In this document: one piece after another, positions 20,590-39,386 of the stretch
Numbering within the stretch: the first letter of the stretch is position 1
Layout of the letters: each line of letters starts with the position of its first letter
DNA from: a phage
Reading direction: 5' to 3' (one strand)
NCBI GenBank assembly: GCA_012690745.1
Contig: GCA_012690745.1_4086.2
Length of the DNA: 64,000 nt
The notes under the pieces: model-generated
The model's database searches: none
What the model was told of the DNA's origin: nothing
What the model saw: the letters and a program-made list of their open reading frames with translations, nothing else
Position numbers and translations under genes: made by a program

Positions 20590-20609
20590 CCACCAGCACA
20601 AGCTGGTGG
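20590..20609. other. palindrome carrying Chi octamer on both strands
   Basis: CCACCAGC-ACAA-GCTGGTGG. Confidence 0.5.
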
Positions 20610-20796
20610 ATTCCCTCTAACAGTATTCAGTACTACATGATGGTCTTCATCCTCCTAGGGTAACATAGTGAGGGCTATGATGGCAGTACTGAATACTCCC
20701 TTTCAAAAGATAGATCTATGGTATAGTACTGACGGATTTTGGGTGTAGTTACCCTGGATGGATTTTGGGCGTAGATATGTCTAGCCCTCCAGAAGT

Positions 20797-20959
20797 CTGG
20801 AAGTAAAGATGGCTATCCATCTAGACGGCTAAACGGCTAGATTTCTGGATGGCTAGACGTTTGGACGGCTAAACGGCTAGATGGTTACACGTCTGGAAGT
20901 ATAGACGGCTAGACGGCTAAACGGCTAGATGGTTACACGTCTGGAAGTATAGACGGCTA
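20797..20959. repeat. iteron-like direct repeat cluster
   Basis: 48-bp unit beginning GACGGCTAAACGGCTAGATGG tandemly repeated at 20864-20911 and 20912-20959; partial copies 20797-20842. Confidence 0.6.
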
Positions 20960-21581
20960 AATCAAAATTTTATTTTGTTTTTTCCAATAGTTCCCCTACC
21001 GCGTCGGGGTAAATTCCCCAGCAGTATCGAACGTTAGATTTTTCTGAATCTGGAATCATTATCTTATAAACTGGGGGCAATGTCAACGGCCTGGACGGAT
21101 ATTTTTAAAATTTTTTTCAGTACTGAATTTTGGGCGTAACTATGCACCCGGTGGGCTTGAGTCTTTCTCGACTTGATGGAACTATTATACAGTACTGAAA
21201 AAATAAAGCAATACCCTGGAAGCAAAAAAGTTTTAATTAATTTGCTTGCTATCCTGGGCCGGACTATGGTACTATATTTCAGTACTGAGAAAGTGCGTTT
21301 ACCTGCTAGGGTGCGGGAGTGTATCCTTTTTTTATATCTTGAATTTTGGGCGTAATTCCGCACCCTCTGGGGTTTCCGCTTTCTCACGTCTATGTAGTAA
21401 TTATACGCTTTTTCAGGATCAAGTCAATACCTAAAAACAAAATAATTGAAAATAATTTAACGCGTTTAAACGGCCTGTAAAGCCCTGGAATGATTGGAAT
21501 GGTGCAAATGTATAGCTTATGTGTATTAATGCGTTAGAATGCGTCTGAGGCCGTTTTATGGGGTGTAGTAGTGATTTGGTT

Positions 21582-21672
21582 GATTCAGTACTGAATAATA
21601 GTACTCCTATATAGAAAGATAGTTCCCCTGGATTGATTCAGTACTGAATAATAGTACTCCTATATAGAAAGA
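21582..21672. repeat. 38-bp direct repeat x2
   Basis: GATTCAGTACTGAATAATAGTACTCCTATATAGAAAGA at 21582-21619 and 21635-21672. Confidence 0.6.
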
Positions 21673-21703
21673 AAACTATTTTAAAAGTATTTGTAGAAAG
21701 TAC

Positions 21704-21731
21704 TTGCACCGTACTGATAAAAGCGTATAAT
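21704..21731 (+). promoter_or_regulatory. early-type sigma70 promoter
   Basis: TTGCAC-16-TATAAT then GTTTTACATC and 5'UTR hairpin. Confidence 0.5.
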
Positions 21732-21786
21732 GTTTTACATCGAGAGCGGGAACACTTCCCGCTACACTTTAAGAGAGATTAATACG

Positions 21787-22149
21787 ATGGCAACTCAAAT
21801 CACCAAAATTATTGCTAACCTGGTTAACTTCCGCGACGAGATGAAAGATCTTCCGGCGGCGACGGTTAAAACTCACATTGACGCATACCGCGAACTGATT
21901 AAAATGCTGCCGCTTAAGCGTGAACAATACGCCGCTACCGTGATGCTTGATGCGATGATCCATAAGATGATCGCCAGTGATTTGACGATGGTTTATCAGT
22001 ATATGGGCGAAAATTTCGCGGTGTGTAGTAAGCCAGTACCAGGGATGGCAACAACTGAGGAATTGCACGGCTTAAACTTAAAACAAGATGCATGGGATAA
22101 TATGCCTCGTTTCCTGGTATGGGCTGACAGTGGCAAAATTTACAAATAA
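21787..22149 (+). CDS. hypothetical protein (120 aa)
   Basis: ORF track 21730..22149 trimmed to MATQITK; the upstream ATG lies in the promoter -10. Confidence 0.6.
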   Translation: MATQITKIIANLVNFRDEMKDLPAATVKTHIDAYRELIKMLPLKREQYAATVMLDAMIHKMIASDLTMVYQYMGENFAVCSKPVPGMATTEELHGLNLKQDAWDNMPRFLVWADSGKIYK

Positions 22150-22163
22150 GTTTAATAAAGTAC

Positions 22164-22191
22164 TTGCAAACTATGTTTAATGGCGTATAAT
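22164..22191 (+). promoter_or_regulatory. early-type sigma70 promoter
   Basis: TTGCAA-16-TATAAT. Confidence 0.5.
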
Positions 22192-22244
22192 GTTTTACAT
22201 CAGGTGGGGAATAGTTCCCCACTATATAAGAGGATTAAAAAAAA

Positions 22245-22484
22245 ATGGCTAAATCAAAAATGTTCTTAGGTCACAAAAACAAAACTCATTGGAATGTAAG
22301 CCTGTGGATTAATAACGATGAGGGATTGTATCGGTTGGCCCTGGACTTTATTGCCGCCAATACTAATCGCAATGATGCGGCCCGTCATATGATGTTATTT
22401 TTAGAACAGACTGGACAAGATAAAACACCGGACGGATTCAAATATAGCACTACTGCGATCCGTGCGGCGATGGTTGGAATGTAA
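22245..22484 (+). CDS. hypothetical protein
   Basis: ORF track. Confidence 0.6.
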   Translation: MAKSKMFLGHKNKTHWNVSLWINNDEGLYRLALDFIAANTNRNDAARHMMLFLEQTGQDKTPDGFKYSTTAIRAAMVGM

Positions 22485-22570
22485 TAGAATTTATTTAAAG
22501 TACTATCATTTTTTTGCGATAGTACTTTATAATAGTGTTTTATTCATACACCAACGATAAGGGCAACAGC

Positions 22571-22837
22571 ATGAATATTAAGTATTTTGCGACGCGTGAA
22601 CAAGCTCGGATCGCCGCACGCCAGGACGGGGCAACGTTTAAAGATATGGGAGCGGGATCGGCAAGTGGTAAACGTTGGGCCATTGTAAAGCGTAGTACGG
22701 CCAGATCATTACAGTACTGGTTAGCGGCCTTAAAAAGTCCCGATAGTGTATCGCGTCGAGTGGTAGAAATAAAGCTCGACCGAAAGGGCAACCGCGTGAC
22801 CGTGTACCGTACTAAAAAGATTGCAGTACTTGAATAA
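22571..22837 (+). CDS. hypothetical protein; paralogue of 35052..35447
   Basis: trimmed to MNIKYFATREQARIAAR; shared FATREQARI...TFKDMG...DRKGNRVTVY. Confidence 0.6.
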   Translation: MNIKYFATREQARIAARQDGATFKDMGAGSASGKRWAIVKRSTARSLQYWLAALKSPDSVSRRVVEIKLDRKGNRVTVYRTKKIAVLE

Positions 22838-22844
22838 AAAGTAC

Positions 22845-22872
22845 TTGCAAACTATGTTTAAAGGCGTATAAT
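22845..22872 (+). promoter_or_regulatory. early-type sigma70 promoter
   Basis: TTGCAA-16-TATAAT. Confidence 0.5.
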
Positions 22873-22924
22873 GTTTTACATCGAGAGCGGGAACTCTTCC
22901 CGCCTATAACCTGGAGTAATAAAA

Positions 22925-23155
22925 ATGACTAATATGTATATGACTGAAGTTAAAACCGTAAAAGATACTACCACGAATAAAACTACTTACTTACAGCGGA
23001 TCTGTGGTGTATGGCAACGTATCAGCAAATCAAAGTACTTTAAATTAACATCATATGCAAACCGTTCTGATTCATTCAGTACTGAAATAAAAGGTAATAA
23101 AGTACACCAATACGGCACTTATTATTATTACAGCCTGGACGCGATTGCAGTATAA
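22925..23155 (+). CDS. hypothetical protein
   Basis: ORF track. Confidence 0.55.
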   Translation: MTNMYMTEVKTVKDTTTNKTTYLQRICGVWQRISKSKYFKLTSYANRSDSFSTEIKGNKVHQYGTYYYYSLDAIAV

Positions 23156-23185
23156 GCAGTTTACAAATCTTTACAATTGCCGGTA

Positions 23186-23214
23186 TTGACTTATTTTGTC
23201 AGTACTGGCATAAT
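23186..23214 (+). promoter_or_regulatory. sigma70-type promoter upstream of a structured noncoding element
   Basis: TTGACT-17-CATAAT. Confidence 0.45.
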
Positions 23215-23404
23215 GTATTCATTGGCAGATAAGCCGTAGCCCATAGGGTGCGGGAGTGTATCTATAGAAAAATTAGTTTAGTATAGTTACAATTGTGCAC
23301 CCGGTGGGTTAGCTGTTGTCATGGGGTATATTATGCCAGTACTTGATAATGCTGTCAATACTTTTTTTTACTATCCAGTACAGAAAACTATTTTTAAAAA
23401 GTAC

Positions 23405-23432
23405 TTGCAAACTATGTTTAAAGGCGTATAAT
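23405..23432 (+). promoter_or_regulatory. early-type sigma70 promoter
   Basis: TTGCAA-16-TATAAT. Confidence 0.5.
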
Positions 23433-23522
23433 GTTTTACATCAGGACGGGGAACGAAATAAGTAACTTCCCGTTAAGTAGCCCAGGAGTAAGGCACACGA
23501 AAAACTCCCCTGATAAAATAGT

Positions 23523-23550
23523 TTGACAAATGTTTTTAAAAGCGTATAAT
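23523..23550 (+). promoter_or_regulatory. early-type sigma70 promoter
   Basis: TTGACA-16-TATAAT. Confidence 0.5.
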
Positions 23551-23582
23551 ACTTACATCAACTACTGAATGAGGGTTATAAA

Positions 23583-24194
23583 ATGAAAACTATCACTACT
23601 ACTACTTTCGTTATGGATTTTTCTGAATTGAACGCAGAACAACAAACGTCAGCTATCGAACTGGTTCGGGAACGTGAAAAAAACTCAAACGACAATTATT
23701 TTTCTGAAAGTGAAATTGAATACTATAAAGAAACAGTACTACCGGAATATGGCATTAATGACGCTGAAATACAATTCAGTGGTTTTTGGTCCCAGGGTGA
23801 CGGTGCATCAATCAGTACTGACCACGTTGACGCAGTGAAGTTTTTACGCAAGGTTAGAGCGTTAACTAAGTATCGCTCAATCCGTCACCTGCTGAATGAA
23901 GATGAATTATCTATGAGGGTACAGCGTTCTCAATCCCGCTACTCACACGAAAACACTGTAAGCGGGTACATTGAATCGGGGTACACTGATTTAACAGCAA
24001 AACAGGAAGCGTTAGCCAATGAGCTTGAGGAATTGCTTACTGTTACTATTCGTGAATTATCTCGCAAGTTGTACCGTGATTTAGAGAATGCATATGAGGA
24101 TCAATTCACTACTGAGAACATCACGGCACTGATCGAGGGTAACGAGTATCAATTCAATGTTATTGATGGCGTAGTAGAATCAATCGCATATTAA
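23583..24194 (+). CDS. hypothetical protein (203 aa)
   Basis: ORF track; SD GAGGG. Confidence 0.65.
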   Translation: MKTITTTTFVMDFSELNAEQQTSAIELVREREKNSNDNYFSESEIEYYKETVLPEYGINDAEIQFSGFWSQGDGASISTDHVDAVKFLRKVRALTKYRSIRHLLNEDELSMRVQRSQSRYSHENTVSGYIESGYTDLTAKQEALANELEELLTVTIRELSRKLYRDLENAYEDQFTTENITALIEGNEYQFNVIDGVVESIAY

Positions 24195-24249
24195 TTTAGT
24201 ACTGAGATAATGGCGGGGAATGGTTCCCGCCTTTACTGAGGAATATCTA

Positions 24250-24537
24250 ATGAGCAAAGTAATTAGCTATACAGTATTAAGCAAGTCATTATCTATTAGC
24301 CAGTGCACTGATGGTTATTGGCTTTATGATGAATCGCGTGGCATGAATTTAGCTATGCGTGCAAAAACTGCTGAGGCGGCGTATCTTGAGGCACTGGAAT
24401 ACTACCAGGAACGATTAAAGGAAGTAGAAAACGATTATAATAACCTGAAAGCGAAAGTAGATCATTTCGTCGGGCAATTCGTTGACGATGACGAGGAAGA
24501 CGGGCACTACTGCGACCGTTGCGGATCTTACAGTTAA
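24250..24537 (+). CDS. hypothetical protein
   Basis: trimmed to MSKVISY; SD GAGGAA. Confidence 0.55.
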   Translation: MSKVISYTVLSKSLSISQCTDGYWLYDESRGMNLAMRAKTAEAAYLEALEYYQERLKEVENDYNNLKAKVDHFVGQFVDDDEEDGHYCDRCGSYS

Positions 24538-24554
24538 GTACTAAGGATTATCTA

Positions 24555-24761
24555 ATGAGTGATTTAATTGAACGTATCAAAGAGCTTGAAGAAAAAGAAT
24601 TACAGTTAATCGGATTGCGTAATAAAGTTTATTCAGAGCTTGGAGGCTTCATACAGGCTTGGGATAGTGGTGATCCTGATGCTTTACCTGCTAACCGCCA
24701 GGCGATGATCAATGATGTGAGAAGTGTCTTTGATTATGTTTTAAAAAGTACTGGACACTAA
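24555..24761 (+). CDS. hypothetical protein
   Basis: trimmed to MSDLIERIKELEE; SD AAGGA. Confidence 0.55.
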   Translation: MSDLIERIKELEEKELQLIGLRNKVYSELGGFIQAWDSGDPDALPANRQAMINDVRSVFDYVLKSTGH

Positions 24762-24779
24762 GCAATAAAGGCGTATAAT
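24752..24779 (+). promoter_or_regulatory. possible sigma70 promoter (weak -35)
   Basis: TGGACA-16-TATAAT. Confidence 0.35.
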
Positions 24780-24831
24780 ACTTTATATCGAGAGCGGGAA
24801 TAGTTCCCGCTACTAATGAGGAATACTACAA

Positions 24832-24996
24832 ATGAATACTTTTACCTTCGCTCAATTGAACGCCCTGGATGTATTGTCTGATGCTTTGCGGGATGCAACT
24901 GAAAGCGGTTTATTTGACAATGTTGACATTCACCCTGATGTAATTAATAATTTTTGTGATGCTATCGCAGAAGTACTGGAAGATCTAAAAAAATAA
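24832..24996 (+). CDS. small hypothetical protein (54 aa)
   Basis: manual ORF MNTFTFAQLNALD; follows promoter, hairpin and SD GAGGAA. Confidence 0.45.
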   Translation: MNTFTFAQLNALDVLSDALRDATESGLFDNVDIHPDVINNFCDAIAEVLEDLKK

Positions 24997-25006
24997 TAGA
25001 AAGTAC

Positions 25007-25034
25007 TTGCAATTAGTTTTTAGTACTGTATAAT
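25007..25034 (+). promoter_or_regulatory. early-type sigma70 promoter
   Basis: TTGCAA-16-TATAAT. Confidence 0.5.
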
Positions 25035-25084
25035 AGTTTACATCAAGGGGAGAAATGGTTCTCCCTGGTAATGAGGAAAATAAA

Positions 25085-25306
25085 ATGGCTAATATCACTA
25101 CTCTTTCCCAACTGGAAGCACTGGTTAAATCTATGCGGGAACATGCCGACAATATCGGCGTAAAAGATCCAGCCGTTTGCTTCTGCGACGAAATGAATGA
25201 TGATACACTGGTAATAGCAGAAGTACAAGATATTTCTAACTATTCATCGCGTTACACTGGCGGCGTAGCAAATAAAGGTGACTTCTGTTTATACCTTACC
25301 AAATAA
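25085..25306 (+). CDS. hypothetical protein
   Basis: trimmed to MANITTLSQ. Confidence 0.6.
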   Translation: MANITTLSQLEALVKSMREHADNIGVKDPAVCFCDEMNDDTLVIAEVQDISNYSSRYTGGVANKGDFCLYLTK

Positions 25307-25474
25307 CAACGCGGGGAGATAATAACTCCCCGTTACTTTTTCAGTACTGAATCATTTAATAGACGGATCTCGGCACCCTGTGGGTTAGTGACTGTATCGT
25401 CTTTATGTAGTAATTATGCCAGTACTGGATGCAGTTGTCAACAATTATTTTTCAAATACTTTTTATTAAAATAC

Positions 25475-25502
25475 TTGCTATTAGTTTTTAAACGCGTATA
25501 AT
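25475..25502 (+). promoter_or_regulatory. early-type sigma70 promoter
   Basis: TTGCTA-16-TATAAT. Confidence 0.45.
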
Positions 25503-25549
25503 GTTTTGCATAGGGGGAGCGGTTCCCCTGGTAACTAAGGAATAAGAAA

Positions 25550-25786
25550 ATGGTCGAACAAATCAAATCAACGTCTTCGAATGTAACGGGAACGGTAGCA
25601 CACTTTACTAGTGATGAATCGCGGGGCGTTCCCTATTGTGCTGTACATGTAAACACTGAGGGTAACTACTGGTTTACGGTTTACGGATCATATTCATTTG
25701 GACGGCCAGGGCATCAAAAAATTCTGGATAAAGTACAACCAACGGGTAAAAATATCACTGCCGAAATGTTTTATAAAAAATCATAA
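25550..25786 (+). CDS. hypothetical protein
   Basis: ORF track. Confidence 0.6.
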   Translation: MVEQIKSTSSNVTGTVAHFTSDESRGVPYCAVHVNTEGNYWFTVYGSYSFGRPGHQKILDKVQPTGKNITAEMFYKKS

Positions 25787-25789
25787 AGT

Positions 25790-25817
25790 ACTTGATAATA
25801 GTTTTTAGTACTGTATA
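25790..25817 (+). promoter_or_regulatory. early-type sigma70 promoter
   Basis: TTGATA-16-TATAAT. Confidence 0.45.
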
Positions 25818-25870
25818 ATATTTTACATCGCAAGGGGGAGCGGTTCCCCCTGGTAACTAAGGATAATCAA

Positions 25871-26170
25871 ATGAAAATTGCAATCATCGCCCTGGCTTTA
25901 TCTGTTTCCTCTTTCGCTGTTAATGCGTCGTTAGATGTAAGTAGTGAAAAATTCATTCAGTGCACTGTAGCGATGACCAATGAAAGTACTGGCGAGATTG
26001 TTTTAAAGGATTTAGAGATCCAGCCCGAAGCATTTAAAAACGGGCCGTTCCATGAAGAAGACGAAAACGGTAGCACAACAATTTATTACGATGCAAGTAC
26101 TAAACGCGGTTCGGTCACTGTAATGGATACTGAGAAAGTAACGCACACAGGAGTAATTAACTGTTTATAA
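25871..26170 (+). CDS. small secreted or periplasmic protein (predicted signal peptide)
   Basis: N-term MKIAIIALALSVSSFAVNA is a typical Sec signal. Confidence 0.6.
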   Translation: MKIAIIALALSVSSFAVNASLDVSSEKFIQCTVAMTNESTGEIVLKDLEIQPEAFKNGPFHEEDENGSTTIYYDASTKRGSVTVMDTEKVTHTGVINCL

Positions 26171-26187
26171 TCTAGTACTGAATCACT

Positions 26188-26219
26188 AGCCCACTTATAC
26201 AGTGGGCTTTTTTGTTTTT
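26188..26219 (+). terminator. intrinsic terminator
   Basis: AGCCCACT-TATAC-AGTGGGCT then TTTTTTGTTTTTG. Confidence 0.65.
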
Positions 26220-26266
26220 GTAGTATCGTAGTACTGCATACTTTGAAAATAGTTTTAAAAAAGTAG

Positions 26267-26294
26267 TTGACATTACCAGGGAAAAGCGTAGAAT
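26267..26294 (+). promoter_or_regulatory. sigma70-type promoter
   Basis: TTGACA-16-TAGAAT. Confidence 0.45.
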
Positions 26295-26408
26295 GTATTA
26301 CATCAAGACGGGGAACATTAAGTAGACCGCCAGTAAGTCGAATGAAAAACTGGACACGTCAAACAAACTTTGATAAACTAACTTAAACTTTAATTGAGGA
26401 TTTATAAA

Positions 26409-26891: not shown

Positions 26892-26912
26892 CAATTAAAG
26901 TACTGAATCACT

Positions 26913-32935: not shown

Positions 32936-32941
32936 AAACTA

Positions 32942-32969: not shown

Positions 32970-33018
32970 AGTTTACATGAAGGGGAGAAATGATTCTCCC
33001 CACTAAGAGGAAAGAAAC

Positions 33019-33231: not shown

Positions 33232-33248
33232 TAGAAGGAGTACAGCTT

Positions 33249-33508: not shown

Positions 33509-33654
33509 AAGAATTCTTATTCGAAGTAGTGTTCCAGGGCGTAGGAAGTAACCAACTGATTCGATCAAGTGGTTACAATGTTAACCAGGCATGGAATAAC
33601 ATTAAACAAATGTACCCGAACGCTATCACATATCGCAACCCAAAACAAGTTTAA
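33505..33654 (+). CDS. small protein (49 aa)
   Basis: manual ORF MKEFLFEVVFQGVGSNQ; ATGA overlap. Confidence 0.4.
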   Translation: MKEFLFEVVFQGVGSNQLIRSSGYNVNQAWNNIKQMYPNAITYRNPKQV

Positions 33655-33672
33655 AAAGATTTAAAAAAGGGA

Positions 33673-33701
33673 TTGACTCCGGTCAGTCCCTTTGCTATTA
33701 T
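33673..33701 (+). promoter_or_regulatory. repeated hairpin-promoter module, copy 2
   Basis: GGGATTGAC-TCCG-GTCAGTCCC hairpin overlapping TTGACT-17-TATTAT. Confidence 0.45.
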
Positions 33702-33801
33702 ATATGCATAGAAACAATCTAACCCACAGGGTGCATAAATGTATCTATTATATGCTGGTGGCTAGTACTATCAAGTACTGAAAACTATTTTTAAAAAGTA
33801 C

Positions 33802-33829
33802 TTGCATTGTACTTAGAATCAAGTATAAT
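33802..33829 (+). promoter_or_regulatory. early-type sigma70 promoter
   Basis: TTGCAT-16-TATAAT. Confidence 0.5.
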
Positions 33830-33917
33830 GTTTTACATCAGGACGGGGAACGAAATAAGTAACCCCGTTAAGTAGTCCAGGAGTAAGACATACGAAAACC
33901 TCCCCTGATAAAATAGT

Positions 33918-33945
33918 TTGACAATAGAAATTAAACGAGTATAAT
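33918..33945 (+). promoter_or_regulatory. early-type sigma70 promoter
   Basis: TTGACA-16-TATAAT. Confidence 0.55.
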
Positions 33946-33975
33946 ACTTACATCAACCACAAAGAGGAATACAAA

Positions 33976-34176
33976 ATGAAACATTTTACTTTCGGTGTAG
34001 TAGGCTTTACAGTATCCAGCGGCGTTTATAAATCAGAACGCGGTGCTAAAAATGCAGCAAGTCGGGCGTATGGTTCACAGCGTGACTTACAGGTCGGTTA
34101 TATTAGTAACATTAATAACATGTTTATTCCTGTTTCACAGCGTAAAGCGGGTAACATGAAATGGGAAACAATTTGA
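33976..34176 (+). CDS. hypothetical protein
   Basis: ORF track; SD AGAGGAA. Confidence 0.6.
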   Translation: MKHFTFGVVGFTVSSGVYKSERGAKNAASRAYGSQRDLQVGYISNINNMFIPVSQRKAGNMKWETI

Positions 34177-34185
34177 TAAAATAGT

Positions 34186-34213
34186 TTGACAATAGTTTTT
34201 AGTACTGTATAAT
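34186..34213 (+). promoter_or_regulatory. early-type sigma70 promoter
   Basis: TTGACA-16-TATAAT. Confidence 0.55.
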
Positions 34214-34265
34214 ATTTTACATCAAGTGGGGAATAGTTCCCCACCTAACAAAGAGAGAAATTAAA

Positions 34266-34541
34266 ATGCGGATTCTACTGACAGCTAACGAAATCGAGCA
34301 AGTACTGACTACTAACCTGGAAGACTGGAAACGTGATGCAGATATCCAGGCGGTGCAATGGCTCAATGATAAGTTAACGCCGGATGATTTAAGTAAGATT
34401 GTAGATCCACAATTCTATGAAGATATTCACGACACGGCTTTAAGCGTCGAGGATGTACTTGATAAGCACTACATTGATACTGATTTACATGTTTACGGTC
34501 GTAAAAACTTTATCACTATTCACGACATTTACAATACTTAA
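34266..34541 (+). CDS. hypothetical protein
   Basis: ORF track. Confidence 0.6.
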   Translation: MRILLTANEIEQVLTTNLEDWKRDADIQAVQWLNDKLTPDDLSKIVDPQFYEDIHDTALSVEDVLDKHYIDTDLHVYGRKNFITIHDIYNT

Positions 34542-34544
34542 GTA

Positions 34545-34572
34545 TTGACAAAGTATCTTAGTACTGTATAAT
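34545..34572 (+). promoter_or_regulatory. early-type sigma70 promoter
   Basis: TTGACA-16-TATAAT. Confidence 0.55.
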
Positions 34573-34628
34573 AGTTTACATCAAGTGAGGGGAATGGTTC
34601 CCTTCCTAACAAAAAGAGAGAAATTAAA

Positions 34629-34952
34629 ATGACTATGATCCTTGCCCAGAAAGTAGAAATGAAAATTGTAACTTCCTTTGACATTAAAGTTAATCGGTGG
34701 ACTGATAGCCACGGCAATACTTACCACTCATGCTACGTGTCTGCATTGATTGGTGACCGCTGGGAAGACCTGGGACATGAAACCTTTACTTACGGTTACG
34801 GTACACAAGGCGAATACACGGGCTTGGAGATCATTAAAGAAACTGTAATAGGTTTCAACCCGAAAGAGAAAGTACTACACAGAATTGAGGATGAGATCAA
34901 CAAAGAAATTACAGTTCGTTACTACGATGTAAAACGTAAAAAAGACATGTAA
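34629..34952 (+). CDS. hypothetical protein; paralogue of 27715..28059
   Basis: ORF track. Confidence 0.6.
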   Translation: MTMILAQKVEMKIVTSFDIKVNRWTDSHGNTYHSCYVSALIGDRWEDLGHETFTYGYGTQGEYTGLEIIKETVIGFNPKEKVLHRIEDEINKEITVRYYDVKRKKDM

Positions 34953-34974
34953 TAGAATCCATTTAAAGTACTAT

Positions 34975-35003
34975 TTGACATTGCCCAGATAGTACTTTAT
35001 AAT
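34975..35003 (+). promoter_or_regulatory. sigma70-type promoter
   Basis: TTGACA-17-TATAAT. Confidence 0.55.
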
Positions 35004-35051
35004 AGACTCTAACTTGTAGTACTAATTAACTTAACTAATAGGATGTACACC

Positions 35052-35447
35052 ATGATTACTAAATTCTTCGCTACCCGTGAACAAGCTCGCATCGTTGCTC
35101 GTGAAGAAGGTGAAACATTTAAAGACATGGGCAAAGATGCACCGAAAGGACAACGCTGGGCGGTACAGTTCAAAGAGATCTCTGATATTGTGAATTCACC
35201 TGAGCCTGTACTTACTGAAGCAGAACTAAAGCAAGCTCAAGAACTGGCTGAAGTACTGAACGCTCAAGATGACTTTTTGAAAGGTTCTGATATTGAAGTT
35301 ACAGTTAACGCAAATGCATGGACTCACGCGGATCACCTGGCAAACCTTAAGCGTCCAAGTGAACTGATTCGTAACCAGAAAGAGATCCGTCATGACCGTA
35401 AAGGAAACCGTGTAACAGTATACAGTAAACGCCGCCAGGTTATCTAA
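35052..35447 (+). CDS. hypothetical protein; paralogue of 22571..22837
   Basis: trimmed to MITKFFATREQARIVAR. Confidence 0.6.
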   Translation: MITKFFATREQARIVAREEGETFKDMGKDAPKGQRWAVQFKEISDIVNSPEPVLTEAELKQAQELAEVLNAQDDFLKGSDIEVTVNANAWTHADHLANLKRPSELIRNQKEIRHDRKGNRVTVYSKRRQVI

Positions 35448-35469
35448 TAACTTTGCAGTACTAACAACA

Positions 35470-35496
35470 CGGCGGGTTCAGTTCCCGCCTTTTTTT
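35470..35496 (+). terminator. intrinsic terminator
   Basis: GGCGGG-TTCAGTT-CCCGCC then TTTTTTT. Confidence 0.6.
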
Positions 35497-35511
35497 ATAG
35501 GATAAACTAAA

Positions 35512-35766
35512 ATGATGAAGGTACAACTATCTAAAGATAATATCTTGCGGGTACACTATAAAGCACCACAGAGAATCATCACAAAGGCCGTACAGCTTGC
35601 TAATGAGTTTATTAATGGTAGTCTATTACCCAGGAAGTTAAGCAACGGGAAACTACGTGTTATCGATGTAGACACTAACAATAGAATAGTAATTGAGAGT
35701 ACTGGAAAAATTAATCTATATGAACACCAACAATACAATAAAAAAATAAAACTAATATCACGTTGA
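35512..35766 (+). CDS. hypothetical protein
   Basis: ORF track. Confidence 0.55.
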   Translation: MMKVQLSKDNILRVHYKAPQRIITKAVQLANEFINGSLLPRKLSNGKLRVIDVDTNNRIVIESTGKINLYEHQQYNKKIKLISR

Positions 35767-35791
35767 CAGTACTCAATTGTTTTAGTATTAT
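35764..35791 (+). promoter_or_regulatory. sigma70-type promoter
   Basis: TTGACA-16-TATTAT. Confidence 0.5.
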
Positions 35792-35822
35792 GTATCTATA
35801 CCAACACAGAGAGAGAAACAAA

Positions 35823-36041
35823 ATGAAATTATCTAAAATCGAAAAGAAAACTATTGATGAAGCAGTGAAGCACGGTTATACCTTTCGTAATGATTCACAC
35901 TTCACCAGTTTTCAACAGGGAAACCGTACCATCAAAAAACTCATTGATAAAGGTTTACTCACTAAGGTTGATAACGGGAACGGTGTAGAATATCAACCGA
36001 CAGAAGACGCATTATCACTAAAGAAATATTCTATTATCTAA
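35823..36041 (+). CDS. hypothetical protein
   Basis: trimmed to MKLSKIEKK; SD AGAGAGA. Confidence 0.55.
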   Translation: MKLSKIEKKTIDEAVKHGYTFRNDSHFTSFQQGNRTIKKLIDKGLLTKVDNGNGVEYQPTEDALSLKKYSII

Positions 36042-36042
36042 T

Positions 36043-36070
36043 TGACAGTACTCAAATGTTTTAGTACTAT
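36043..36070 (+). promoter_or_regulatory. sigma70-type promoter
   Basis: TTGACA-16-TACTAT; near-duplicate of the 35764 promoter. Confidence 0.5.
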
Positions 36071-36098
36071 GTACGCATACCAACACGGGGAAAACAAA

Positions 36099-36341
36099 AT
36101 GATTACTTTAGAAAAACGTATCAAAGAGACTACAACGCTGGTGGAACTGTTAACCGTTCTTAAATGCCGGGTAACTCCATTCAGTACACCGGACTTTATC
36201 AACATGGTGGACGTTAACGGTCGATATCGTATTGCGGTCGAACAAGGTACGGCAAAAGTATTCAGTACTAAAAATACGCGTGAAGTATTCCACGCAGTTC
36301 AAGTAAAAAAAGTAGTTGCCATTGATAGTAAAGTACTGTAA
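36099..36341 (+). CDS. hypothetical protein
   Basis: trimmed to MITLEKRIKE. Confidence 0.55.
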   Translation: MITLEKRIKETTTLVELLTVLKCRVTPFSTPDFINMVDVNGRYRIAVEQGTAKVFSTKNTREVFHAVQVKKVVAIDSKVL

Positions 36342-36372
36342 TATAGTTTCATTAACTCAAGGAGTCAACACA

Positions 36373-36957
36373 ATGCGTAACTATACTAAATTCATCCGTT
36401 CACTTCATGCAATGGAAACCAACAAAGAGATCCTTTCAGCTTGTCGGTTAGCTGGACTGGAGATCGTCGGTGCGGGTTCTTCCCGTATTGTATTCGCTTT
36501 AAATGATCGGTTAGTGATTAAGGTCGCGAATTGTGATGCGGGTGTAGAACAAAATGAAACTGAATGTAAGGTATGGAATTTTTTAGATTATGACCGTCCG
36601 CACCTTAAACAGTTCTTTGCCAAGGTGCATATGCATTTAAGCGATCCTGATAATATGTTTATCGTTATGGATCGGTTGAGTACTGCAAGCAAAGGCAGTG
36701 TAAAGCACGTTAACGCGTGCAACGAATTAAAGTACAATATTAAACGTAATGCAATTGAACGCCAGCACCGCTTTGCTGATGCACTACAACACGTTGATGA
36801 TACACTGTCAACACTAACGATAAGAGATATCAGAAAACAGAATATCGGCCAGGATCGCAACGGCCTTATTAAAGTACTTGATTACGGTTTAACCCGCAAT
36901 ATCTGGAATCAGTACTATAAAAAGCGGGATGTAAAAGCCGTAACTATAACACGATAA
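36373..36957 (+). CDS. protein-kinase-like protein (putative Ser/Thr kinase fold)
   Basis: G-loop VGAGSSRIVF, Lys in VIKV, catalytic-loop-like IRDIRKQN, DYG in place of DFG, with kinase-like spacing; SD AAGGAG. Confidence 0.55.
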   Translation: MRNYTKFIRSLHAMETNKEILSACRLAGLEIVGAGSSRIVFALNDRLVIKVANCDAGVEQNETECKVWNFLDYDRPHLKQFFAKVHMHLSDPDNMFIVMDRLSTASKGSVKHVNACNELKYNIKRNAIERQHRFADALQHVDDTLSTLTIRDIRKQNIGQDRNGLIKVLDYGLTRNIWNQYYKKRDVKAVTITR

Positions 36958-36975
36958 AAAAGATTAAAAAAGGGA

Positions 36976-37004
36976 TTGACTTCGGTCAGTCCCTTTGCTA
37001 TTAT
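36976..37004 (+). promoter_or_regulatory. repeated hairpin-promoter module, copy 3
   Basis: GGGATTGAC-TTCG-GTCAGTCCC hairpin overlapping TTGACT-17-TATTAT. Confidence 0.45.
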
Positions 37005-37098
37005 ATATTCATTGAGAGATAGCTCACTGACCCACAGGGTGCATAAATGTATCTATTATATAAGTATTCAGTACTGAAAACTATTTGATAAAAAGTAC

Positions 37099-37126
37099 TT
37101 GCATTGTACTTAGAATCAAGTATAAT
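37099..37126 (+). promoter_or_regulatory. early-type sigma70 promoter
   Basis: TTGCAT-16-TATAAT. Confidence 0.5.
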
Positions 37127-37178
37127 GTTTTATATCGAGAGGGGGAAATGGTTCTCCCTGGTAATAAGGAATAAAATC

Positions 37179-37400
37179 ATGACTACAATGACTTGCATTT
37201 ACGCTTCCAATCTTCTGAATGATGCGGCCTTTAATGTTGATTCAGAATATCAATGTTATCGGGATGAAAATAAAAAAGTTTTTGTAGTTGATAATAATGG
37301 TTTCCATATTGAATTACAATCCGGTTTCACTGGTGTTGATGGTAAATCAGTGTGGGGCGTACAGGATGATAAAGGCACATATCATTTTAAACGTAATTAA
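37179..37400 (+). CDS. hypothetical protein
   Basis: trimmed to MTTMTCIY; SD AAGGAA. Confidence 0.55.
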   Translation: MTTMTCIYASNLLNDAAFNVDSEYQCYRDENKKVFVVDNNGFHIELQSGFTGVDGKSVWGVQDDKGTYHFKRN

Positions 37401-37403
37401 GTA

Positions 37404-37431
37404 TTGACAAAGTATATCAGTACTGTATAAT
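37404..37431 (+). promoter_or_regulatory. early-type sigma70 promoter
   Basis: TTGACA-16-TATAAT. Confidence 0.55.
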
Positions 37432-37486
37432 AGTTTACATCAAGGGGAGAATAGTTCTCCCCACACCAATAAAAGGAAACAAAATT

Positions 37487-37759
37487 ATGTCCAGCTACTC
37501 CGCTACTATGATCATTAAAGATATGAACGGTAATCCTACTTCTGCTGGTGGATCATTTGGAAATATTAACTTAGATGGGCGGTTATCCATGCAATCAGCC
37601 ATCGATACAGCGAAAGAAGTTTTTAAGAATGAATGTACTGTTAGTAAGCTGGATTATATGGGATTCGCTATCGAGAAAACTACTCGTTTTGTGAACTACA
37701 AAAATCCACTGATGATTGATACTAACCTGAAAGCTAACGAAGTGGGGTACTTATTATGA
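37487..37759 (+). CDS. hypothetical protein
   Basis: ORF track; SD AAAGGAA. Confidence 0.6.
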   Translation: MSSYSATMIIKDMNGNPTSAGGSFGNINLDGRLSMQSAIDTAKEVFKNECTVSKLDYMGFAIEKTTRFVNYKNPLMIDTNLKANEVGYLL

Positions 37760-37947
37760 CAGTAGAAGAAGTAAAAAAAGTACTGGCAGTACTACGATAT
37801 CATAATCATTGCAAGGTGAAGAATGATCCTGATTATCTCGATTCATCCCTGGAGGAAGACACCTTAAACGCGATAAGCCATATGCAAACATTAGCAAAGC
37901 GTATGACCGAAAAGAATAGGCCGGACTATATCGGAAATAAAATTTAA
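37756..37947 (+). CDS. hypothetical protein
   Basis: ORF track; ATGA overlap. Confidence 0.55.
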   Translation: MTVEEVKKVLAVLRYHNHCKVKNDPDYLDSSLEEDTLNAISHMQTLAKRMTEKNRPDYIGNKI

Positions 37948-37954
37948 AAAGTAC

Positions 37955-37982
37955 TTGCATTGTAGTTAGATTAACGTATAAT
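37955..37982 (+). promoter_or_regulatory. early-type sigma70 promoter
   Basis: TTGCAT-16-TATAAT. Confidence 0.5.
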
Positions 37983-38034
37983 GTTTTATATCGAGAGGGG
38001 GAAATGGTTTCCCCTCAAGTCCAGGAGATACACC

Positions 38035-38298
38035 ATGAACGCTATTGAAATCACTATCAATGCACACGTATACGACAACGTAGTACTGCAAACTACTATG
38101 ACCGCTAACGATACCAGTACTTTGCGGAATACTGTTATTAGTGCCGTATGTGCTGCAATCGGTGATGTATCCCTGGAAAATGCAGAACATATCAACAACG
38201 GTTTCACTATGTGCAAGCGTGATAACGCAAAACATATCATCGTAGAAGGTTACGGCGGTGTAGAATTTAATGTTTATATGAAAAAAGTACTTGCATAA
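38035..38298 (+). CDS. hypothetical protein
   Basis: trimmed to MNAIEITIN; SD CAGGAGA. Confidence 0.6.
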   Translation: MNAIEITINAHVYDNVVLQTTMTANDTSTLRNTVISAVCAAIGDVSLENAEHINNGFTMCKRDNAKHIIVEGYGGVEFNVYMKKVLA

Positions 38299-38318
38299 TA
38301 ACTAAAACAAAGTATAAT
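38291..38318 (+). promoter_or_regulatory. early-type sigma70 promoter
   Basis: TTGCAT-16-TATAAT. Confidence 0.5.
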
Positions 38319-38365
38319 GTTTTGCATAGGGGGAGATATCCTCCCCCACTAAAAGGAGTAATAAA

Positions 38366-38590
38366 ATGGCTAACTTTGATGAACTGATGCGGGAAGTAGC
38401 TAACCTGGCAGAAGAGAAGAAATCATTCGATTCTATCTATAACACCGCTCACCGTGATTCAGTACTGGCATGTACTCAGGATCAAAAAGATGAACTAATC
38501 GCCACCTATCATGAAGCATGGAAGTACTACCGACAATGGGAGAAAGAAGAAAGTGAGTCTACCATTGACGGCCTCAATAATCTAATCTAA
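38366..38590 (+). CDS. hypothetical protein
   Basis: ORF track; SD AAGGAG. Confidence 0.6.
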   Translation: MANFDELMREVANLAEEKKSFDSIYNTAHRDSVLACTQDQKDELIATYHEAWKYYRQWEKEESESTIDGLNNLI

Positions 38591-38608
38591 AAGTTTTATT
38601 TCAGTACT

Positions 38609-38638
38609 ATTGACATAGCTTGATAGTACTGATGTAAT
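38609..38638 (+). promoter_or_regulatory. sigma70-type promoter
   Basis: TTGACA-18-TGTAAT. Confidence 0.4.
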
Positions 38639-38666
38639 AACTTTACTAACTACAAGGGGAAACATA

Positions 38667-38924
38667 ATGGAACAGTTCACACAATATCGGGTAAATCCTC
38701 AAGCTATGGCCTACGTAGAAGACCATAAAACATTACCAGTACAGACACCAATCAAAGGCCGTATCTATCGTGCTATGCAGTGGAATAACGCCTATAATGG
38801 CTATAAAGCGGTAGCGGCTGCAATGTACTTAGGGGATGGTGAATGGTTTGATCCAAATAATCCTGGTGCACTAGATAGTACTGAACAAATGACATGGGCC
38901 GACTATATCGAAGATATCTCATAA
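38667..38924 (+). CDS. hypothetical protein
   Basis: ORF track. Confidence 0.6.
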   Translation: MEQFTQYRVNPQAMAYVEDHKTLPVQTPIKGRIYRAMQWNNAYNGYKAVAAAMYLGDGEWFDPNNPGALDSTEQMTWADYIEDIS

Positions 38925-38931
38925 AAACTAT

Positions 38932-38959
38932 TTGACAGTACTACAAGATAATGTATAAT
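38932..38959 (+). promoter_or_regulatory. early-type sigma70 promoter
   Basis: TTGACA-16-TATAAT. Confidence 0.55.
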
Positions 38960-39012
38960 GTTTTACATAGAGCGGGGGAATAGTTCTCCCGCACCTTTAG
39001 GAGTAAAACATT

Positions 39013-39213
39013 ATGTCAATCGCTAACGAATTGGTTGCAGTACTGAATGAAGCAAAAGCCAACCGCATCGATGTACAGATCAAAGAGCTTGGCAATGGCT
39101 TGATCGGCTGTACTTGTTCCGTGCAAACGGCTACCGATTATCGGGAAGTGGAATCACTCGAATCACTGGTACGGTATATTAAAATCCTGGTAGAAGATTG
39201 GAGAATCATCTAA
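39013..39213 (+). CDS. hypothetical protein
   Basis: ORF track; SD AGGAG. Confidence 0.6.
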   Translation: MSIANELVAVLNEAKANRIDVQIKELGNGLIGCTCSVQTATDYREVESLESLVRYIKILVEDWRII

Positions 39214-39234
39214 CAAAAAAGAATAAAAAAGGGA

Positions 39235-39263
39235 TTGACTCTGGTCAGTCCCTTTGCTATTAT
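39235..39263 (+). promoter_or_regulatory. repeated hairpin-promoter module, copy 4
   Basis: GGGATTGAC-TCTG-GTCAGTCCC hairpin overlapping TTGACT-17-TATTAT. Confidence 0.45.
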
Positions 39264-39386
39264 ATACGCATAGACAAAAACTAGCCCACAGGGTGCAGAG
39301 AAGTATCTGTAAGATAGTTAATAACGGTGAGTAACTATCTGCTGGTGGATGTAATTCCAGTACTCAAAACTATTTCAAAAAAAGTA

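Follow-up and report, generated by a model that had tools for sequence, protein, structure and literature searches.

Exact copies of the host Chi octamer GCTGGTGG are strongly enriched in the direct terminal repeat (DTR) of Asteriusvirus jumbo phages, to which the array is confined, where it is conserved in sequence, and from which its sites face both ends of the genome. Such arrays are limited to phages of enteric hosts. Sequence comparison indicates that this is probably a selected array of host Chi sites, which would handle RecBCD at the ends of the linear genome. The initial annotation of the window (the whole stretch of DNA analysed, 64,000 nucleotides) had described seven octamers as an excess of co-oriented Chi sites in an early region; the observation itself is confirmed, and its interpretation is partly supported.

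Chi sites in the terminal repeat

Sequence comparison assigns the window to Asteriusvirus, the 121Q/PBECO4-like jumbo coliphages, as it has 88-97% identity with Asteriusvirus phages recorded on E. coli and, in a few cases, on Salmonella. The host of this genome would be an enteric bacterium whose RecBCD recognises GCTGGTGG. The termini of the genome were placed by homology to phages fEgEco12 and vB_Ec-M-J, whose DTRs give a base-for-base boundary match to window positions 20013-40717. Position 1 of both relatives aligns with window position 20013 (fEgEco12 1-300 versus window 20013-20312, 98% identity), and the fEgEco12 DTR end, 20993, aligns with 40717 (fEgEco12 20694-20993 versus window 40418-40717, 94% identity). 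The ends of both relatives come from experiment; those of fEgEco12 were set by PhageTerm and restriction digests (PMC13070987), and as the digests gave the predicted patterns, fEgEco12 DNA can be cut. In vB_Ec-M-J, the DTR is annotated at 1-21525 and an identical second copy closes the record. The window holds the repeat once, bordered by the two ends of the unique region, which is what an assembly with a collapsed repeat should show. Small, rightward-oriented early genes lie close together in the repeat, along with consensus sigma-70 promoters that include 12 perfect TTGACA-16/17-TATAAT promoters, all on the plus strand. The GC content of the repeat is 38.6%, compared to 35.4% in the rest of the genome.

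The seven octamers listed initially are all exact (plus strand 20602, 27020, 31028, 33754, and 39341; minus strand 20590 and 26958), and five more had been missed (plus strand 1857, 32489, 36137, and 37544; minus strand 13613). The resulting 12 sites compare with 0.53 expected from dinucleotide shuffles, with 0 of 100 shuffles reaching 12, and with 0.56 to 1.2 expected under Markov models of orders 1-4, which bears out the claim of a marked excess over composition. Chi ranks 13th among the over-represented 8-mers of the window, and its 24 one-mismatch neighbours occur there in 0 to 4 copies each, near expectation, with none enriched. The excess is thus large and specific to the exact octamer, and the motif is the host's Chi, as had been proposed. 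The sites are not, however, spread over the early region at large: 10 of the 12 fall in 20013-40717, the DTR, which had gone unrecognised, against 0.2 to 0.4 expected when Markov models of orders 1-4 are trained on the repeat. Two lie in the 20-kb left flank (1-20012; 0.2 to 0.8 expected) and none in 40718-64000. The repeat and its sites are as follows.

20013..40717, plus strand: DTR equivalent, 20,705 bp, with 10 of the 12 window Chi sites; collinear with the DTRs of relatives
20590..20609, both strands: terminal palindrome of two Chi, CCACCAGC-acaa-GCTGGTGG, with the left genome end 578 bp away
26958..26965, minus strand: Chi, intergenic, 6.9 kb from the left end, in the correct orientation for RecBCD entry at that end
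27020..27027, plus strand: Chi, intergenic, invariant in 8/8 aligned Asteriusvirus genomes with variable flanks
31028..31035, plus strand: Chi, intergenic, overlapping the loop and 3' arm of a hairpin, AGCCCAC-N12-GTGGGCT; invariant in 8/8
32489..32496, plus strand: Chi within a 62-aa ORF (32396-32584), in frame GCT GGT GG; invariant
33754..33761, plus strand: Chi, intergenic, in a variable insert flanked by the two promoters of a repeated hairpin-promoter module
36137..36144, plus strand: Chi within an 80-aa ORF (36099-36341), read acG CTG GTG Gaa
37544..37551, plus strand: Chi within a 90-aa ORF (37487-37759), in frame GCT GGT GG
39341..39348, plus strand: Chi, intergenic, nearest to the right end, 1,369 bp from the right DTR boundary
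1857..1864, plus strand: Chi outside the repeat, antisense in a minus-strand RCC1-like paralogue
13613..13620, minus strand: Chi outside the repeat, in sense orientation within a minus-strand RCC1-like paralogue

The two sites outside the repeat are probably background (1857) and probably codon- or protein-related (13613); relatives also have minus-strand Chi within RCC1-like paralogues. A similar distribution is seen in the complete genome of vB_Ec-M-J, with 11 Chi in the 21.5-kb DTR versus 23 in the 335.5-kb unique part (binomial p = 3e-6), where Chi is at most ~2 times the high-order Markov expectation. Chi density is 483 per Mb in the window's repeat, whereas the 335 kb of unique sequence in vB_Ec-M-J has 69 per Mb. 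The DTR thus exceeds the E. coli genome, at 217 per Mb (10.1101/2021.07.08.451572), and its sites are concentrated by the packaged DNA ends, as in P1-like and LLS-class phages.

Within the DTR, 7 of the 10 sites are intergenic. The other three are coding, compared to 0.19 expected from codon frequencies. Only two of four paralogous promoter modules have Chi, each within a different insert; flanking sequences differ between the individual sites. The excess is therefore not a by-product of codons or repeats. Spacing is irregular, from 0.06 to 6 kb. The initial annotation had also placed several copies inside hairpin modules, which holds for the 20590/20602 palindrome and for the overlap at 31028, but 33754 and 39341 lie 60 to 110 nt downstream of the repeated hairpin-promoter module, within variable inserts.

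Conservation in Asteriusvirus and other jumbo phages

Nine Asteriusvirus DTRs carry 8 to 13 Chi each. In the aligned genomes, none of the 56 Chi columns at seven plus-strand sites is variable, versus 32% of flanking columns, and synonymous positions are frozen inside the three coding Chi. Lineage-specific gains and losses are also present. The octamers thus appear to be conserved under purifying selection. Around 32489, neighbouring synonymous positions vary, including the base right after the octamer. Chi 36137 uses three successive G-ending codons, mostly rare in the genes of the repeat (ACG, 13% of Thr; CTG, 28% of Leu; GTG, 11% of Val), and is invariant even in phage A4, where the flanks have strongly diverged. 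Chi 37544 is invariant in the seven genomes that possess the gene, which TH47 lacks. Two intergenic sites, 33754 and 39341, the latter directly after the inverted repeat AGATAGTTA...TAACTATCT, are invariant in 8/8 genomes with an indel immediately 3' of the octamer. The minus-strand site at 26958 is kept in 6/8 aligned genomes and mutated in A4 and 121Q. The 20590/20602 pair forms an 8-bp palindrome with a 4-nt loop and one Chi per orientation, located in a conserved non-coding terminal element beside CAGTACTG boxes. It is kept in 7/9 Asteriusvirus DTRs, with invariant arms and a loop of acaa or ttgt; the exceptions are A4, where it has decayed, and the low-quality CMSTMSU record, which cuts it short.

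Other jumbo phages of enteric bacteria have comparable arrays. The DTR of Klebsiella phage fENko-Kae01 contains 14 Chi (0.2 to 0.5 expected), several in promoter spacers, and at 484-503 it has the same double-Chi palindrome, here with loop ttaa, in a recognisably homologous terminal element. The CBB DTR contains 9 (0.2 to 0.5 expected). The DTR arrays of the two other enterobacterial genera are at positions non-homologous to the Asteriusvirus sites. The 39-kb DTR of the Pseudomonas relative PA5oct contains 0 Chi, and PA5oct has no array of GCTGGCGC, the Chi-like octamer of Pseudomonas, either, so the whole clade does not share the strategy.

These comparisons bear on two other readings of the array. 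That it lacks function, as a by-product of composition, codon usage, intergenic-module amplification or host-derived DNA, is strongly disfavoured and highly improbable. The elevated GC content of the repeat, the two Chi in paralogous modules and a strand ratio that tracks composition would fit such an origin; however, models built on the composition of the repeat, like its codon frequencies, yield less than one site, one-mismatch variants are unenriched, the octamers are invariant amid variable flanks that differ from one site to another, and two other genera have the array at positions that are not homologous. Alternatively, selection may act on the octamer as a site for something other than RecBCD, whether a phage early regulator, an element associated with promoters, or a signal in the terminal repeat for packaging or replication. 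Most Chi are indeed intergenic and near promoters, with at least four in fENko-Kae01 between the -35 and -10 hexamers, and the terminal pair, within its conserved non-coding element, is a perfect palindrome of the type used by dimeric DNA-binding proteins. Yet the octamer is exactly the host Chi and occurs only in Enterobacterales-infecting relatives, being absent from PA5oct, while the sites have neither fixed placement relative to promoters, terminators or genes, three being within ORFs, nor regular spacing. We consider this reading unlikely.

A proposed role for RecBCD at the genome ends

A Chi site is in the correct orientation when RecBCD entering a double-strand end meets GCTGGTGG from its 3' side. 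The eight plus-strand Chi of the repeat are 1.4 to 20.1 kb from the right end and the two minus-strand Chi 0.58 and 6.9 kb from the left end, so that at both genome ends the nearest correctly oriented Chi is 0.6 to 1.4 kb away. With the ends placed by homology, the sites do adjoin the physical termini where RecBCD would enter, as suggested initially. The co-orientation claimed for them is descriptively true, at 8 plus versus 2 minus, but does not go beyond the G-rich composition of the sense strand, which predicts a plus fraction of 0.72 to 0.77 (binomial p ~0.45). Both orientations are enriched about equally, and orientation therefore lends no independent support. In the DTR of phage A4, no correctly oriented Chi for the left end was found, indicating that the left-end part of the design is dispensable.

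We infer that RecBCD probably acts on the DTR Chi sites, with protection or recombination as the main benefit. Virion DNA would be linear, with the repeat at both ends. RecBCD loaded at the right end would run leftward and meet the eight plus-strand Chi, while RecBCD loaded at the left end would meet the minus-strand Chi of the palindrome and then that at 26958. Since RecBCD shifts from degradation to RecA loading when it recognises Chi, any loss would be confined to DNA present in two copies. Strand invasion by the RecA-coated 3' tails into the second repeat copy, in the same molecule or in a sister, could follow, yielding circles or concatemers or priming recombination-dependent replication. 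The literature searched contains no published data on RecBCD or RecA dependence of Asteriusvirus growth.

The initial annotation had linked the benefit of Chi to the lack of a Gam- or gp2-like RecBCD inhibitor. Consistent with this, tblastn and phmmer searches of vB_Ec-M-J and the window detected no homologue of lambda Gam, T7 gp5.9 or T4 gp2, but did detect T4 gp4, the positive control. Profile scans covered only the 53 DTR ORFs: Pfam, the one scan that included Abc2, gave no inhibitor family among them, and PHROGs matched 47 DTR families, of which the 25 listed are all of unknown function, with no inhibitor family. An inhibitor may be present among the small, fast-evolving early proteins, and the DNA ends may be capped by a virion protein.

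The annotation of vB_Ec-M-J includes a UvsX-like recombinase, UvsY, SbcC/SbcD-like nuclease subunits and endonuclease VII, and thus a phage-encoded recombination module. With a UvsX/UvsY-type system, the phage is not a simple case of absent recombination functions, and its UvsX, UvsY and SbcCD-like proteins depart from the published rule that Chi-rich phages lack recombination functions of their own. This system also makes host-driven recombination potentially unnecessary. Chi could then act on RecBCD for a benefit other than repeat-to-repeat recombination, either by reducing degradation fragments and thereby curbing the acquisition of CRISPR spacers or other defences triggered by breaks at the incoming end, or by titrating and inactivating the few RecBCD enzymes of the cell. 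Geometry and enrichment would be the same. Sequence alone cannot separate the two, and Bobay et al. argued for a main role of Chi in end protection in recombinase-encoding phages (PMC3784561). This reading leaves unexplained why the sites are confined to duplicated DNA and do not guard the unique DNA near the ends, and we regard it as rather unlikely.

A broader possibility may be raised tentatively, although we doubt it on present evidence. The Chi array and terminal palindrome may be an obligatory, sequence-encoded RecBCD-handling device common to RaK2-like Enterobacterales jumbo phages (Asteriusvirus, the fENko-Kae01/Munch group and Mimasvirus), and these virulent phages would then need the RecBCD and RecA of the host to turn their ~350-kb genomes into circles or concatemers via 20-kb repeats despite their own UvsX. 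On this view, the exposed, invading end could be read from the strong asymmetry of the sites, 8 to 12 of which face the right end and 0 to 2 the left.

Comparison with known systems

As a RecBCD-handling array, the Asteriusvirus sites would be a new instance of a strategy already proposed for P1 and for LLS-class lambdoid phages. In P1, Chi clusters at the terminal repeats and has been proposed to drive RecBCD-dependent circularisation (10.1101/2021.07.08.451572); P1 and its relatives P7 and D6 have ~50 Chi, concentrated in or near these repeats. The likeness extends to linear packaged DNA with direct terminal repeats, the presence of both Chi orientations, a terminal Chi density roughly double the E. 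coli value (P1, ~527 per Mb; here, 483) and a proposed role in RecBCD/RecA-dependent recombination of the repeats (10.1101/2021.07.08.451572; PMC12315714). However, P1 is a temperate phage that has no UvsX-type system, can alternatively use Cre-lox, and has variable ends because of headful packaging from a pac site, whereas the phage described here is a virulent jumbo myovirus with fixed ends, its array terminating precisely where an invariant 20.7-kb repeat gives way to other sequence.

In LLS-class lambdoid phages, Chi sites are oriented and cluster near the termini (Zheng et al. 2025; PMC12315714), and in phages with a recombinase but no inhibitor, Chi is over-represented near the packaging site (Bobay et al. 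2013; PMC3784561). As in both, Chi is strongly over-represented here and clustered beside the end where RecBCD would enter, with no recognisable RecBCD inhibitor. These lambdoids differ in having cos or pac genomes of 40 to 60 kb, and most of the LLS class have no recombinase, unlike the phage with UvsX, UvsY and SbcCD-like proteins. In addition, 20 of 23 LLS sites are in the active orientation, whereas the ratio here equals the compositional expectation. Given its recombination genes, the phage fits best the class of Bobay et al. with recombinase present and inhibitor absent, in which Chi near the packaging site protects the ends, and not the LLS class.

The octamer and the logic are also those of lambda red gam chi+ mutants. 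Given a Chi in the correct orientation, linear or rolling-circle lambda DNA can survive and recombine in recBCD+ cells. For lambda the situation arises in the laboratory, since the wild-type phage lacks Chi and makes Gam, whereas the sites here are native, multiple and conserved. T5, with its first-step-transfer DNA, is likewise a virulent coliphage, and its direct terminal repeat is long, at 10.2 kb, and carries pre-early genes driven by host promoters. Its first 50 kb contain two Chi, both in the repeat (0.1 to 0.3 expected), a weak signal and not an array; genome-wide over-representation has been reported for T5-like phages (PMC3784561). T4 gp2, lambda Gam, T7 gp5.9 and P22 Abc2 address the same problem, linear ends exposed to RecBCD, by means of inhibitor or end-protection proteins, whereas the solution proposed here lies in the DNA sequence itself.

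The terminal repeat and its surroundings

Compared with the genomes of Asteriusvirus, 121Q/PBECO4-like jumbo myoviruses of E. coli (348-386 kb), the window shows 88-97% identity. The record of one of these, vB_Ec-M-J, is annotated with a 21,525-bp direct terminal repeat whose two copies are identical (the whole 378,573-bp record assembled). Position 1 of vB_Ec-M-J, and likewise that of fEgEco12, aligns at window 20013, and the end of the fEgEco12 repeat (20,993) aligns at 40717. The fEgEco12 termini come from PhageTerm, with confirming restriction digests (PMC13070987), and PhageTerm gives a repeat of ~20.5 kb in BF17 (PMC10059673). As the repeat ends of relatives align there, we take window 20013-40717 (20,705 bp) as the terminal-repeat equivalent, hereafter the repeat, its own termini being assigned by homology. 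The sequence on its left belongs to the right-hand end of the unique part (an array of RCC1-like paralogues, then small genes), a layout that matches an assembly with the repeat collapsed.

The repeat holds ~50 small rightward ORFs with intergenic regions between them. It also has 12 perfect TTGACA-16/17-TATAAT sigma-70 promoters (window 20378-38959), all on the plus strand, and is a host-RNA-polymerase early region. Many further matches at 10-11 of 12 positions are present. The promoter array is unusually strong for early promoters of the host type. The first 1.8 kb (20013-21786) is non-coding, and the first annotated CDS of relatives begins ~1.7 kb in. A 6-bp-stem hairpin at the very terminus (20017-20033) is followed by CAGTACTG boxes and then by a double-Chi palindrome; signals for packaging or replication may lie in this non-coding stretch.

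No other 8-mers of the window come close in over-representation to the palindrome CAGTACTG and related AGTACT words, which give 104 both-strand counts (52 sites, 27 of them in the repeat) versus 16 expected. The boxes are densest in 20013-40717 (e.g., 20535-20568, 33765-33790, and 39360-39375), where words of this type lie just upstream of or overlap early-promoter -35 hexamers. AGTACT words also head the 8-mer list of the terminal repeat of Pectobacterium phage vB_PcaM_CBB (CBB). Judged by sequence, the CAGTACTG element looks like an early-promoter operator or UP-like element common to the genera.

The RCC1-like tandem array (window 1677-15044, minus strand, ~12 paralogous genes of 358-443 aa) lies next to the repeat, in the rightmost part of the unique genome. 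Its counterparts are annotated as "regulator of chromosome condensation" in relatives and as "X-linked retinitis pigmentosa GTPase regulator" in CMSTMSU, and several copies in relatives contain sense-strand Chi. From the array to the repeat (15045-20012), AT skew is strongly positive (0.15-0.23) and long ORFs are few; in the corresponding stretch of relatives, the annotated genes are very small and on the plus strand only.

Excess, confinement, and conservation of Chi

An exact search of both strands finds 12 copies of the Chi octamer GCTGGTGG in the window, nine on the plus strand and three on the minus strand, where they read CCACCAGC. The initial annotation had located seven, all at correct coordinates, and missed the other five.

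Chi sites in the window (exact matches)
1857, 20602, 27020, 31028, 32489, 33754, 36137, 37544, 39341; plus strand; Chi
13613, 20590, 26958; minus strand; Chi

The marked excess claimed at that stage is borne out: dinucleotide-preserving shuffles predict 0.53 sites in the window, with 12 reached in 0 of 100 shuffles, and Markov models of orders 1 to 4 predict 0.56 to 1.2. G follows the heptamer GCTGGTG in 12 of its 13 window copies. As none of the 24 one-mismatch neighbors of Chi is enriched in window 8-mer counts, and the sequences flanking the 12 sites have nothing in common, the exact octamer itself is the object of the excess.

To locate the excess, expectations were computed with Markov orders 1-4 fitted per region, both for the window and for vB_Ec-M-J, the sole relative scanned across its whole genome.

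Chi observed and expected by region
Window repeat, 20013-40717, 20.7 kb; observed 10; expected 0.2-0.4
Window left flank, 1-20012, 20.0 kb; observed 2; expected 0.2-0.8
Window right flank, 40718-64000, 23.3 kb; observed 0; expected 0.1
vB_Ec-M-J repeat, 21.5 kb; observed 11 (9 plus, 2 minus); expected 0.2-0.4
vB_Ec-M-J unique part, 335.5 kb; observed 23 (14 plus, 9 minus); expected 2.7-12

Counted genome-wide, as the initial annotation had suggested, enrichment is strong, yet it is found only in the terminal repeat: the 11 versus 23 sites of vB_Ec-M-J are concentrated there with a binomial p of 3e-6, and in the unique part Chi strand tracks gene strand. Per Mb, the repeat has 483 Chi, the unique part of vB_Ec-M-J 69, and E. 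coli 217 (the last from 10.1101/2021.07.08.451572).

Nine Asteriusvirus repeat-equivalents were compared (the window, vB_Ec-M-J, TH47, ECO103 4-12-1, CMSTMSU, A4, 121Q, JNE01, and fEgEco12), each with 8 to 13 Chi, 8-11 on the plus strand and 0-2 on the minus strand. Seven plus-strand sites (27020, 31028, 32489, 33754, 36137, 37544, and 39341) are invariant wherever the locus is present. None of their 56 columns varies, versus 32% of those in the 150 nt to each side, a contrast that is inflated by kinship although the difference is large. Indels adjoin two of these seven sites. Extra sites have been gained in 121Q, in JNE01, and, at two more loci, in a subset of genomes, while the terminal pair is lost from A4 and the minus-strand site 26958 from A4 and 121Q.

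Codons, modules, and orientation

Could the array be a by-product of other sequence features? Codon usage fails as the cause, as codon frequencies predict 0.19 coding Chi in the repeat where three are observed, and the seven others are intergenic (7/10, versus 36% intergenic DNA; p = 0.03). The coding site at 36137 comprises three consecutive G-ending codons, mostly rare (ACG, 13% of Thr; CTG, 28% of Leu; GTG, 11% of Val), and is unchanged even in A4 despite diverged flanks.

A second candidate is that Chi forms part of a repeated-module consensus, several copies having been placed by the initial annotation inside conserved hairpin modules. These are four paralogous promoter modules (starting at window 29624, 33666, 36969, and 39228). 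Two do contain Chi, but within a different insert in each, between the two promoters of the module, and the other two lack it; with the unlike flanks and unenriched near-variants, this leads us to reject the consensus explanation.

Copies of the promoter module
29624-29660; AAAGGGATTGACTCCGGTCAGTCCCTTT then GCTATTATAT
33666-33702; AAAGGGATTGACTCCGGTCAGTCCCTTT then GCTATTATAT
36969-37005; AAAGGGATTGACTCCGGTCAGTCCCTTT then GCTATTATAT
39228-39264; AAAGGGATTGACTCCGGTCAGTCCCTTT then GCTATTATAT

A -35-like TTGACT lies within the 12-bp stem of the module, and each copy continues with a conserved CCCACAGGGTGCA...GTATCT segment and the second promoter. The motif CCCACAGGGTGC, a conserved short element, is found in the intergenic modules (33720-33735, 39282-39297, and paralogues), and the similar words CCCACAGG, GGGTGCGG, and GTGCGGAG are among the top-enriched 8-mers of the repeat of CBB (1-22456), a distant relative.

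Orientation carries less weight than first thought. The 8:2 ratio and the excess are present, but the bias claimed as co-orientation does not go beyond strand composition: strand-specific Markov models predict from the G-rich sense strand that 72-91% of sites fall on the plus strand, and the observed plus:minus ratios of 8:2, 12:2, and 7:2 are no different (p = 0.26-0.86). As sense-strand composition already predicts these ratios, co-orientation is not independent evidence. Enrichment is roughly 20-50 fold in each orientation.

The placement of the sites still has meaning, since the standard rule is that RecBCD must reach GCTGGTGG from its 3' side (PMC12315714). The plus-strand sites facing the right genome end lie 1,369, 3,166, 4,573, 6,956, 8,221, 9,682, 13,690, and 20,108 bp from it, and the minus-strand sites facing the left end lie 577 and 6,945 bp from that end. 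By these distances, the double-Chi palindrome (20590 and 20602) supplies the first Chi for RecBCD coming from the left end and, for RecBCD coming from the right, the last one still within the repeat.

Other phages, RecBCD, and known systems

Beyond Asteriusvirus, Chi was counted in the repeats of three relatives, including fENko-Kae01, a member of a separate genus-level cluster with ~29% similarity to fEgEco12 (PMC13070987).

Chi in the terminal repeats of three relatives
fENko-Kae01, host Klebsiella aerogenes; repeat 19,736 bp (PhageTerm); 14 Chi (12 plus, 2 minus), expected 0.2-0.5; 2 in the next 30 kb
CBB (Mimasvirus), host Pectobacterium; repeat 22,456 bp; 9 Chi (7 plus, 2 minus), expected 0.2-0.5; 3 in the next 27.5 kb
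PA5oct, host Pseudomonas; repeat 39,080 bp; 0 Chi, expected 0.2-0.4; 0 in the next 11 kb

As the array is found in Enterobacterales-infecting relatives and is absent from PA5oct, the motif is no inherent feature of this clade's repeats. A swap to the host's own Chi in the Pseudomonas relative was also considered. The Chi-like octamer of Pseudomonas, GCTGGCGC (PMC12315714), has one copy in the PA5oct repeat versus 0.3-0.7 expected; with no GCTGGTGG and no excess of GCTGGCGC, PA5oct serves as a negative control only.

In fENko-Kae01, a back-to-back pair, CCACCAGC-ttaa-GCTGGTGG, lies 484 bp from the left end, in a terminal non-coding element recognizably homologous to its Asteriusvirus counterpart. 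Across both groups, the arms of the palindrome are constant and the 4-nt loop varies. A DNA search with the fENko-Kae01 element gave matches only in close Salmonella relatives. The palindrome CCACCAGC-N4-GCTGGTGG proved unsuitable as a comparison tool, since an IMG/VR scan returned 46 contigs, nearly all unrelated, the sole relevant one being the 121Q record. At least four fENko-Kae01 Chi (3711, 9192, 16840, and 18721) lie in the -35/-10 spacer of sigma-70-like promoters (e.g., TTGACAaGCTGGTGGgaaattgagATAAT), where variation in sequence is tolerated; this is either a convenient neutral place for Chi or a hint of transcription-RecBCD interplay.

The first 50 kb of T5 contains two Chi (8127 and 8689), both on the plus strand and both in the 10.2-kb terminal repeat, 1.5-2.1 kb from its inner (right) boundary. 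Two sites are too weak to make T5 a second repeat-confined array; on this 50 kb, the pair may faintly resemble the jumbo-phage arrangement.

The initial annotation had linked Chi to phages lacking a RecBCD inhibitor. Searches of vB_Ec-M-J and the window by tblastn and phmmer, with queries from reference records, detect no homologue of T4 gp2, lambda Gam, or T7 gp5.9; T4 gp4, the sensitivity control, is detected in the same searches at E = 5e-11. Among the 53 repeat ORFs (21787-40562), Pfam identifies no inhibitor family. Its matches are a DksA/TraR zinc finger, a GNAT acetyltransferase, a ParE-like toxin domain, a weak protein-kinase match, and several DUFs. No PHROGs family of known function is among the matches listed for repeat ORFs (25 of 47 families).

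Repeat ORFs located by Pfam
About 31639-31893; DksA-like ORF
About 31960-32313; acetyltransferase ORF

These negatives are weak evidence, and small inhibitors or end-capping proteins may offer an alternative means of end handling. By the annotation of vB_Ec-M-J, the phage encodes UvsX-like and UvsY proteins, SbcCD-like nuclease subunits, and endonuclease VII.

On the evidence, the Chi octamers are best read as putative functional sites kept in duplicated terminal DNA. Host RecBCD entering the linear genome would meet Chi in the repeat and be turned from nuclease to RecA loader ahead of unique sequence. The selected benefit could be end protection, repeat-to-repeat recombination, or both; such recombination would lead to circle or concatemer formation and recombination-dependent replication. 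The fEgEco12 authors speculate on circularization via the repeats and do not mention Chi or RecBCD (PMC13070987).

Does Chi carried by a phage benefit that phage? The question is under active study, with prior evidence from P1 and lambda-like phages, and the pattern is here extended to virulent jumbo phages. These provide a cleaner natural design, with fixed ends, an array cut off precisely where the repeat ends, roughly half of its sites non-coding, the same arrangement in three genera, and a Pseudomonas relative as negative control. They also suggest a mechanism, concrete enough to test, by which linear genomes of ~350 kb with 20-kb repeats could survive entry and be turned into templates for replication, a matter on which the Asteriusvirus literature offers speculation only. 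The mechanism predicts that these therapeutic-candidate phages are sensitive to host recBCD and recA status, and the array, as a sequence signature, could help find terminal repeats in unresolved jumbo-phage assemblies.

Close parallels to the jumbo-phage array are known. P1 has 50 Chi, dense at its terminal repeats, and RecBCD-dependent circularization has been proposed (10.1101/2021.07.08.451572); LLS-class lambdoid phages have terminal Chi clusters, 20/23 oriented (PMC12315714); and in recombinase-positive, RecBCD-inhibitor-negative phages, Chi is over-represented around the packaging site, with end protection the probable role (PMC3784561). Our literature search found no report of Chi in jumbo-phage terminal repeats, nor relevant work on Chi or RecBCD in Asteriusvirus or other jumbo phages. 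What sets the array apart is that it is strictly confined to a fixed repeat of 20 kb, that observed sites exceed expectation 25-50 fold, that a conserved double-Chi palindrome lies close to the terminus, and that the phage also encodes a recombination system.
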